Made by a program: the position numbers and the translations under genes | Shown: piece after piece, positions 22,476 to 50,254 of the stretch | How the letters are laid out: the number at the start of each line of letters is the position of its first letter | How positions within the stretch are numbered: position 1 is the first letter of the stretch | Notes under the pieces: model-generated | The model's input: only the letters and a program-made list of their open reading frames with translations | The model's database searches: none | What the model was told of the DNA's origin: nothing | Assembly (NCBI GenBank): GCA_026770705.1 | Contig: JANJGN010000038.1 | Coordinates: forward strand, 12,710,001 to 12,774,000 | DNA: 64,000 nt | Reading direction: 5' to 3' | Source: Isurus oxyrinchus | Taxonomy: Eukaryota

Positions 22476-22633
22476 CTTAAGGACTGTCACGTACGAGCTG
22501 TATATCATACTTAGAATGAACAAAGTGACGAAAGCGACTACTGTTGATGCAGTGCCTACATCCTCATCGAAGTTTTCTAATCCGTCTTCCTCTACTAATT
22601 GGTCGTCCATACCTTCCATTATTTGAGGGAGTT
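22476..22633 (-). CDS. IgNAR: IgNAR transmembrane exon TM1
   Basis: Acceptor TTTATTCTAG|AA, donor AAG|GTAAAG; 158 nt, phase 1-0. Acidic spacer ELPQIMEGMDDQLVEEDGLENFDED, then a CART-motif helix GTASTVVAFVTLFILSMIYSSYVTVLK. Confidence 0.95.
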
Positions 22634-27461: not shown

Positions 27462-27844
27462 TTATGTACACGATTTAACACTGTCAGTTAGGAGAAGCGA
27501 AACATTAACTAAAGTAGGTTTACCGTGGGATTTATTAATACTTCGGATTAAATTCCTCTCGAGGGACGGGTGGCCCACTAAACAGGAGTAAGTGGTGCCA
27601 GTGTTCCACTCGGCTGCGGTGAGTCTCAATCTGCCGGCTAAGAAGCTGGAACCATTTCCCTTCTCACTCTCCAGTTGGCTCGGATGACCTGAATCCAGAA
27701 GGGTGTCATTGGCCATCCAAGCGATGTAAATCTCAGCAGGATAAAAACCGGTGGCGAGACACACCAGCGTTGCCGTATTCTCAGTGTCGATCTCATCCTC
27801 TGACGGAGACAGAATGTAGACTTTGGGACTAATCATTGTGCCAA
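27462..27844 (-). CDS. IgNAR: IgNAR constant exon C5 plus secretory tailpiece
   Basis: Acceptor TTTACAG|TT. Encodes VGTMISPKVYILSPSEDEIDTENTATLVCLATGFYP...YSCLVGHPSL...KSHGKPTLVNVSLLLTDSVKSCT*, with NVS sequon and penultimate Cys. An internal donor CAC G|GTAAAC at 27524/27523 serves the membrane form. Confidence 0.98.
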
Positions 27845-48294: not shown

Positions 48295-48342
48295 CAGAGT
48301 TCACAGTCAGCACCGTGCCAGCCCCATCGTAGTTGTTATAGT
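48295..48342 (-). CDS. IgNAR: IgNAR J segment (YNNYDGAGTVLTVNS)
   Basis: VNAR FR4 motif YDGAGTVLTVN; donor TCT G|GTAAGT, phase 1. Confidence 0.97.
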
Positions 48343-48696: not shown

Positions 48697-48764
48697 GGTT
48701 TGTGCTGTGGCCCGAGTCACTGTGTCATAGCAGTTACACATCAATTCATTCCAACACAATAAAT
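48697..48764 (-). other. IgNAR: IgNAR D3 segment (coding 48725-48736, TAACTGCTATGA) with 12/12 RSSs
   Basis: V-facing RSS is degenerate: CACATCA 48737-48743, 12 nt, ACAATAAAT. J-facing RSS: CACAGTG 48718-48724, 12 nt, GCACAAACC 48697-48705. Open frames NCY and TAM. Confidence 0.88.
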
Positions 48765-49079: not shown

Positions 49080-49165
49080 AGTTTGTGTATTATGCGAATC
49101 CAGGATTCATCACTGTGGCACATCGTCACACCAGCCACACAGTCATAGGGATCAGTGCAAAAAGG
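49080..49165 (-). other. IgNAR: IgNAR D2 segment (coding 49118-49137, TGGCTGGTGTGACGATGTGC) with 12/22 RSSs
   Basis: V-facing RSS: CACAGTC 49138-49144, 12 nt, GCAAAAAGG. J-facing RSS: CACAGTG 49111-49117, 22 nt, ACACAAACT 49080-49088. Open frames GWCDDV and AGVTMC. Confidence 0.93.
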
Positions 49166-49353: not shown

Positions 49354-49436
49354 AGTTTGTGTATTACAGGAACCGTCTTCTCGATTGCTGTGGCAGCTAT
49401 AGTATGTACACAGTGGTACAGCCCAGCGCACAAATA
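49354..49436 (-). other. IgNAR: IgNAR D1 segment (coding 49393-49408, TACATACTATAGCTGC) with 12/23 RSSs
   Basis: V-facing RSS: CACAGTG 49409-49415, 12 nt, GCACAAATA. J-facing RSS: CACAGCA 49386-49392, 23 nt, ACACAAACT 49354-49362. Open frames TYYSC and HTIA. Confidence 0.92.
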
Positions 49437-49626: not shown

Positions 49627-49664
49627 TGTTCTTGTATGAGCAGAAGTTCAAACTCATTACTGTG
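49627..49664 (-). other. V 3' recombination signal sequence (22-bp spacer)
   Basis: CACAGTA (49658-49664), 22 nt, ACAAGAACA (49627-49635). Confidence 0.9.
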
Positions 49665-49936
49665 AGTTTGAGCTTTGCAGTAAAACGTGACACTGTCTTC
49701 AACTGTCAGGTCATTGATTCGCAGGGAAAATGACTTGCTTCCCTTGTTGACTGATTCAACATATCGGCCGCCAATGGTTATCCGTTCCCAATTTGTTGAT
49801 CCCGGGTTTTTCCGGAACCATGATGTAGAGTACAAGCTACAGCAAGTATCCTTTAGGACGCAGTTGATTGTCAGGGAATCGCCTGTCTCTTTCGTTGCCG
49901 TTCTTGGTGTTTGGTCCACTCTAATACTGAAGGTAC
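49665..49936 (-). CDS. IgNAR: IgNAR V segment (VNAR), type II-like, germline unrearranged
   Basis: Acceptor TTCTCCATTCAG|GT. Encodes [91 protein letters not shown]. Canonical C22, W36 and C83; short VNAR fold without CDR2; Cys in CDR1 and none in FR2. Confidence 0.98.
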
Positions 49937-50078
49937 CTGAATGGAGAAAATATATTAAATAACTTGCGGGTCTGAAACAATGAAAACATTTAAAGGCAAA
50001 GGCAAATTACACAATACGGGCGCAGCCACACTAATTTAACCAGTTACTGTACACTCTTTTTTAGCGAACAGCACTTAC

Positions 50079-50121
50079 TTGGTAACCAGGTTAAAAGGAG
50101 CGAAAGGCAGAAAATATTCAT
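50079..50121 (-). CDS. IgNAR: IgNAR leader exon (signal peptide MNIFCLSLLLTWLP)
   Basis: ATG at 50121; 43-nt exon ending CCA A|GTAAGT (phase 1). The peptide matches the MNIFLLS..L.WLP leader of shark IgNAR. Confidence 0.95.
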
Positions 50122-50211: not shown

Positions 50212-50254
50212 ACCTTATAAACATCAAGAGGATGGGCGGATTTGCATAGGGCGG
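50212..50254 (-). promoter_or_regulatory. IgNAR V promoter: octamer flanked by two GC boxes, plus TATA-like box
   Basis: Plus-strand ATTTGCAT at 50240-50247 is ATGCAAAT on the gene strand, the IgH-type orientation. GGGCGG at 50234-50239 and 50249-50254. Gene-strand TTTATAA at 50215-50221, about 95 nt upstream of the leader ATG. Confidence 0.85.

Follow-up and report, generated by a model that had tools for sequence, protein, structure and literature searches.

An IgNAR gene cluster whose V segment encodes two adjacent cysteines in CDR1 (Cys28 and Cys29) was identified in Isurus oxyrinchus. The CDR1 binding loop normally carries one cysteine; the twin cysteines found here are real, multi-copy and expressed. 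On its sequence, the gene most likely encodes a type II VNAR whose second CDR1 cysteine is optional and for which a CDR1-CDR3 disulfide is predicted.

The analysed stretch of DNA (64,000 nt; hereafter the window) contains on its minus strand a complete IgNAR cluster, running from a promoter octamer through leader, V, D1, D2, D3, J and C1 to C5 to the secretory tail (Sec) and transmembrane (TM) exon. It has the L-V-D1-D2-D3-J-C1..C5-Sec-TM arrangement of an IgNAR cluster with RSSs, and its V lacks CDR2. The motif ATGCAAAT (50240..50247), read from the sequence upstream of the leader, is taken to be the Ig-promoter octamer. The leader exon (50079..50121) comprises 14 codons plus one base with a GT donor, and the leader-V junction at 49936 was seen in contigs of runs X15, X16 and X3. 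The V exon (49665..49936) encodes a mature domain of 87 amino acids (49925-49665) and is followed by a 3' RSS with a 22-base spacer (49627..49664). The segments D1 (16 nt, 49393..49408, frame TYYSC; 12-RSS on the 5' side and 23-RSS on the 3' side), D2 (20 nt, 49118..49137, frames GWCDDV and AGVTMC; 12-RSS 5' and 22-RSS 3') and D3 (12 nt, 48725..48736, frame NCY; 12-RSS on both sides) each carry a cysteine in at least one stop-free frame. The J segment (YNNYDGAGTVLTVNS, 48295..48342; 23-RSS 5') has no cysteine. The exons C1 (35605..35919), C2 (32488..32793), C3 (32083..32400) and C4 (28290..28610) are open, the exon containing C5 and the secretory tail (27462..27844) is open to its stop, and the transmembrane exon (22476..22633), also open, resembles the transmembrane stretch of P0014 (basking shark). 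A decayed second copy of the transmembrane exon, with its frame broken by one extra base, lies on the minus strand at 4121-3963, some 18.5 kb farther downstream.

The CDR1 of the window V reads KDTCCSLYS. Codon 28 is TGC (49842..49844), part of the WGCW hotspot TGCT, and codon 29 is TGT (49839..49841), the type II CDR1 cysteine. The germline cysteines of this V are thus Cys22, 28, 29 and 83, whereas FR2 and J contain none and CDR1 has no Trp. These features had been claimed in the first-pass annotation and are borne out, the TGC TGT pair at 49844-49839 and the absence of FR2 and FR4 cysteines and of a CDR1 Trp by the V and J sequences; its proposal of a single-base origin (AGC to TGC) likewise agrees with the other loci, which mostly carry AGC at codon 28. 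A confident model of the mature V (20-row alignment, mean pLDDT 88.2) places Cys28 and Cys29 in a predicted surface loop (residues 26-32) between strands 17-25 and 33-39. The window V is up to 75% identical to solved VNARs, and in germline form it ends before CDR3 and the G strand.

A genome search with the window V, in which 150 of 489 candidates were scored, yielded 11 IgNAR V loci at 71-100% identity, the next-best match standing at 51%. All 11 loci of this scored set show V-D-D-D-J with RSSs. Cys28 and Cys29 occur together in three of them (L001, which is the window, L002 and L003), Cys29 alone in five (L004-L007 and L010) and Cys32 alone in three (L008, L009 and L011), while the 29+32 pair occurs in none; at least one CDR1 cysteine (28/29 or 32) is kept in every locus. 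Codon 28 is TGC in three loci, AGC in seven and ATC in one. The three Cys28 loci lie on two contigs with differing flanks, and their V exons have no stop. C1-C5 are open in all six units examined (of the 11, fetched over at least 60 kb), including the three Cys28 units.

Several other features of these loci were recorded. L008, L009 and L011 (V exon at about 1500-1760 of each locus) encode Tyr or Phe at position 29 together with Cys32, and a conversion tract joining a Cys29 gene to a Cys32 gene would yield the cysteine pair (29+32) of the proposed type V. The J segments of L003, L005 and L008 encode a germline cysteine in their CDR3 part (TNCYY, TNCYQ and CNNY, respectively), a further source of CDR3 cysteine. 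The V of L011 is divergent (71%), with six cysteine-bearing or odd framework changes, among them Cys37 adjoining Trp36 and His in place of Tyr82, and no leader was found by pattern; this V may be decaying. Contigs C26, C140, C151, C152, C210, C242 and C301 of assembly G000 carry further V-like sequences, over 100 in number, which match at 39-51% across most of the domain. They include L012-L030, adjoin IgNAR clusters on C26, and are probably NAR-TCR V genes.

Expression was assessed in the eight of 24 listed runs that were aligned to the site (X3, X5, X6, X7, X12, X15, X16 and X19); the RNA type of X15, X16 and X19 is a guess and X3 is labelled 'DNA?'. A contig of run X16 (depth 8.2, 140 aligned letters) joins the leader exon to a V with TGC-TGT, and a spliced Cys28-Cys29 transcript therefore exists. 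This contig fits L002 with one difference, outside codons 28-29, and spans residues 1-44, thus ending short of any V-D-J junction. Only Ser28 contigs cover the site in X15 (same sample as X16) and in X5 and X6 (two other samples with the same label), and Ser28 is present in all covering contigs of X7, X12 and X19 (organism B), although contigs cannot prove absence. None of the contigs connects Cys28 to a CDR3.

Despite its label, run X3 shows leader-V joins and heavy mutation. In its 1,511 aligned contigs (differences taken from 40 of 42 rows), changes at the second base of codon 28 account for 32% of contig depth, and changes in codon 30 for 37%; the only change at codon 29 among the differences listed amounts to 4.7% of depth and yields Tyr, which is also a germline state. 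Codons 28 and 30 both lie in WGCW hotspots of AID, and TGCT, formed with the Cys28 codon, retains the motif as an overlapping AID hotspot. The run is dominated by one Ser28 cluster (Thr17 marker in 67% of contig depth), and most of the mutation load at codon 28 therefore belongs to clones other than those with Cys28. A first-base T in codon 28 reaches at most 14% of contig depth and may be partly somatic; Cys28 clones are a minority in X3, with contig depth a poor measure of their share. Over window positions 49780-49940, a Glu16-Thr17 cluster type like L007 makes up about two thirds of X3 contig depth, which suggests very uneven use of IgNAR clusters.

Protein searches returned 13 and 3 matches. 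Among named proteins, a basking shark model (P0014; 89%, CDR1 DTSCGLHS) and a Triakis IgNAR (P0015; 85%) come closest; both have Ser28. Cys28 was found in none of 20 database VNARs, and a PDB search with the CDR1 stretch gave no CC in five alignments of 30 matches. As the closest relatives carry Ser28 and the 20 database VNARs lack Cys28, Ser28 (AGC), one base from Cys28 (TGC), is regarded as ancestral. An AU test on the flanks of all 11 loci, with the V exon removed, rejected the Cys28 loci as one clade (p-AU 3e-70 upstream, 5.5e-4 downstream and 2e-196 for pooled flanks). The window is 99.1% identical over 62 kb to its sister L004, with identical D and J segments, yet L004 keeps Ser28; the two differ at 5 of 261 V bases, compared with 30 differences in some 7,900 neighbouring bases (Fisher p=0.005). 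The window V is two bases from that of L002, whose flanks are far more distant than those of L004. Because the Cys28 loci form no flank clade and the 99% twin L004 retains Ser28, V-exon gene conversion is likely. The simplest reading of these sequences is that Cys28 likely arose once and was moved between clusters by such conversion, although recurrent mutation or loss at codon 28 could mimic it. A review reports some evidence of gene conversion in cartilaginous fish V regions (PMC4279169).

L001 and L004 may be alleles or, alternatively, recent duplicates. A further possibility, that contigs C38 and C42 represent two haplotypes, with Cys28 heterozygous at three loci, is not supported: L003 and L007 share only 96% identity across 59 kb, the six units are all collinear at 96-99%, and a probe from mid-way along C38 gave no C42 match among the 26 of 49,270 candidates scored. 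The IgNAR units on C38, C42 and C100 of G000 are collinear over at least 60 kb at 96-99%, and their upstream and downstream flanks give different trees, the pattern of a recombining segmental-duplication array.

V variants among nine close loci comprise 21 replacement and 3 silent changes (ratio 2.3, p=0.12, not significant), against 14 replacement and 10 silent in the constant exons of six units, and 6 of the 24 V variants fall in the eight CDR1 codons (p=0.02). The replacement excess and CDR1 enrichment hint, at the level of sequence comparison, at diversifying pressure on V.

Among known VNARs, the window V is closest to type II (nurse shark PBLA8, PDB 2I24/2I26; dogfish 3B4, 7SPO), with which it shares Cys22/Cys83, Cys29, 66-75% identity, the lack of FR2 or FR4 cysteines and cysteine-coding D segments. 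In type II, Cys29 bonds to CDR3 (PMC6312525, PMC11432006). The window V departs from type II in its second germline cysteine at position 28, where all 20 database VNARs have another residue. The classical four-cysteine type II has one non-canonical CDR1 cysteine and the window V has two; under the looser rule of 'at least one extra cysteine' (PMC6312525), it would count as a non-classical type II. It differs from type I (cysteines in FR2 and FR4, neither present in the window cluster), type III (conserved CDR1 Trp, absent from the window CDR1) and type IV (two canonical cysteines only, against four).

A type V with Cys29, Cys32 and two CDR3 cysteines has been proposed from the horn shark (Cabanillas-Bernal 2019, PMC6576789). 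It was defined from expressed clones; the word 'germline' is absent from the text of that paper, and the bond map was left open by its authors. Like the window V, the proposed type V has two non-canonical CDR1 cysteines and none in FR2 or FR4, but the window pair is adjacent (28+29 against 29+32) and germline, being known here from the V gene. In a topeshark paper, CDR3 is the sole basis for assignment to type V (PMC10672104). Off-class VNARs with unusual cysteine counts are also numerous in libraries: 70% of a nurse shark library is type II/III and 57% classical type II (PMC6312525, section 6), and 18.8% of a bamboo shark library is reported as 'new types' (PMC8692893). The running text of these two papers, figures apart, neither singles out a 28+29 pair nor ties one to germline genes. 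A 2026 review (PMC12907318) lists types I-IV, and its available text has no match for Cys28 or vicinal. The first-pass annotation had placed the gene outside the standard classes, which holds in that it fits none of types I-IV exactly; the phrase is overstated, because a type V with two CDR1 and two CDR3 cysteines had already been proposed (PMC6576789), and off-class patterns are many. No germline 28+29 pair was found in the literature searched (running text of articles, few of them from subscription journals). The 28+29 register is apparently undescribed and constitutes a single-base positional variant of known architectures.

The reading that we favour by a little over even chances is that of a type II-like VNAR in which Cys28 is an optional second thiol, double-stapled in some clones and erased or culled in others. 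Cys29 would make the usual CDR1-CDR3 disulfide. Depending on the B-cell clone, Cys28 would either pair with a further CDR3 cysteine supplied by a D segment or be lost to mutation. Clones with two CDR3 cysteines would be double-stapled and type V-like in the 28+29 register; a count of one or three would leave a thiol unpaired, and such clones would tend to lose Cys28 through hypermutation or be culled. In a toy joining model, for which the trimming and N-addition settings were our own choice, 20-51% of productive Cys28-cluster joins had an even CDR3 cysteine count (2 or 4) and 45-53% an odd count; 0-35% of simulated joins lacked cysteine. The simulated counts of Cys28 clusters were the same as those of their Ser28 counterparts, which argues against co-evolution of the D segments with Cys28. 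Residue 28 of PBLA8 is somatically mutated and faces CDR3, and its change from Asn28 to Arg raised contact with CDR3 Asp93 from 2% to 95% of simulation frames (PMC8093575). Since the precursor Asn28 touches Asp93 in only 2% of frames, the short Cys28 may not reach CDR3. The replacement excess and CDR1 enrichment hint at selection stronger than 'optional' implies.

It is conceivable, though doubtful, that gene conversion reshuffles the CDR1 cysteine position (29, 28+29 and 32 within one genome) and that 28+29 represents a selected germline double-staple class rescuing the numerous two-cysteine joins; if so, a germline source for a type V-like VNAR would be shown here for the first time. The narrower reading of a dedicated double staple is rather unlikely. 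Under it, almost every expressed clone would have both Cys28 and Cys29 bonded to CDR3 cysteines, and positive selection would act on a type V-like class encoded in the germline. The occurrence of Cys28 in three clusters on differing flanking backgrounds, the enrichment of germline variants in CDR1, the frequent supply of two CDR3 cysteines by the D segments, the CDR1 cysteine at 28/29 or 32 kept across the loci and the precedent of type V are all consistent with it. However, D and J are identical in the window and its Ser28 twin L004 with equal simulated cysteine counts, codon 28 remains in an AID hotspot, and Cys28 is absent from the contigs of X5, X6 and organism B, which cannot prove absence. 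The double CDR1-CDR3 staple raised as one option in the first-pass annotation accordingly has no direct support, given the D and J shared with the Ser28 twin and the WGCW hotspot at codon 28.

Near-neutral or mildly harmful status of Cys28 is also unlikely. The spare thiol would mispair, Cys28 clones would be under-used or purged, and the three copies would reflect drift and conversion. A young single-base change, the non-significant replacement excess and the low share of T at codon 28 in X3 (at most 14% of depth, though 3 of 11 loci carry TGC) would fit this, whereas a Cys28 transcript free of mutation at codons 28-29 was seen in X16, all three Cys28 clusters look intact, and shark cluster usage is uneven in any case (PMC8692893).

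Improbable in our estimate is a vicinal disulfide between Cys28 and Cys29 that makes CDR1 stiffer and leaves CDR3 free, with type IV-like behaviour. The two cysteines are adjacent in the predicted surface loop and available to each other before any CDR3 partner, but vicinal disulfides are strained and rare, and with cysteine-rich D segments most joins would be left with free thiols (0-35% cysteine-free in the simulation). Linkage by Cys28 of the two V domains of the IgNAR homodimer, an option also raised in the first-pass annotation, or binding of another protein, is very improbable: the modelled surface position of Cys28 would allow it, but according to the published description V domains form unpaired tips (PMC8093575), and a bond at CDR1 would presumably block the paratope. 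A sequencing or assembly error, for which nothing speaks beyond the single-base nature of the change, is refuted by three loci on two contigs with differing flanks and by the spliced contig of X16, an independent run type, and is excluded in practice because TGC-TGT recurs in two further V genes (L002 and L003).

Cysteine pattern is the basis on which VNAR classes are told apart, and for the proposed type with two CDR1 cysteines the disulfide map has been left open. The reach of the present finding is limited to VNAR specialists. A double-stapled CDR3, if true, would be usable as a rigid scaffold, and a spare thiol, if true, would be a drawback to screen out of Isurus oxyrinchus libraries. The almost identical clusters that share their D and J segments, one with Ser28 and the other with Cys28, constitute a natural controlled pair, which lets one ask whether B-cell selection matches the number of CDR3 cysteines to CDR1.
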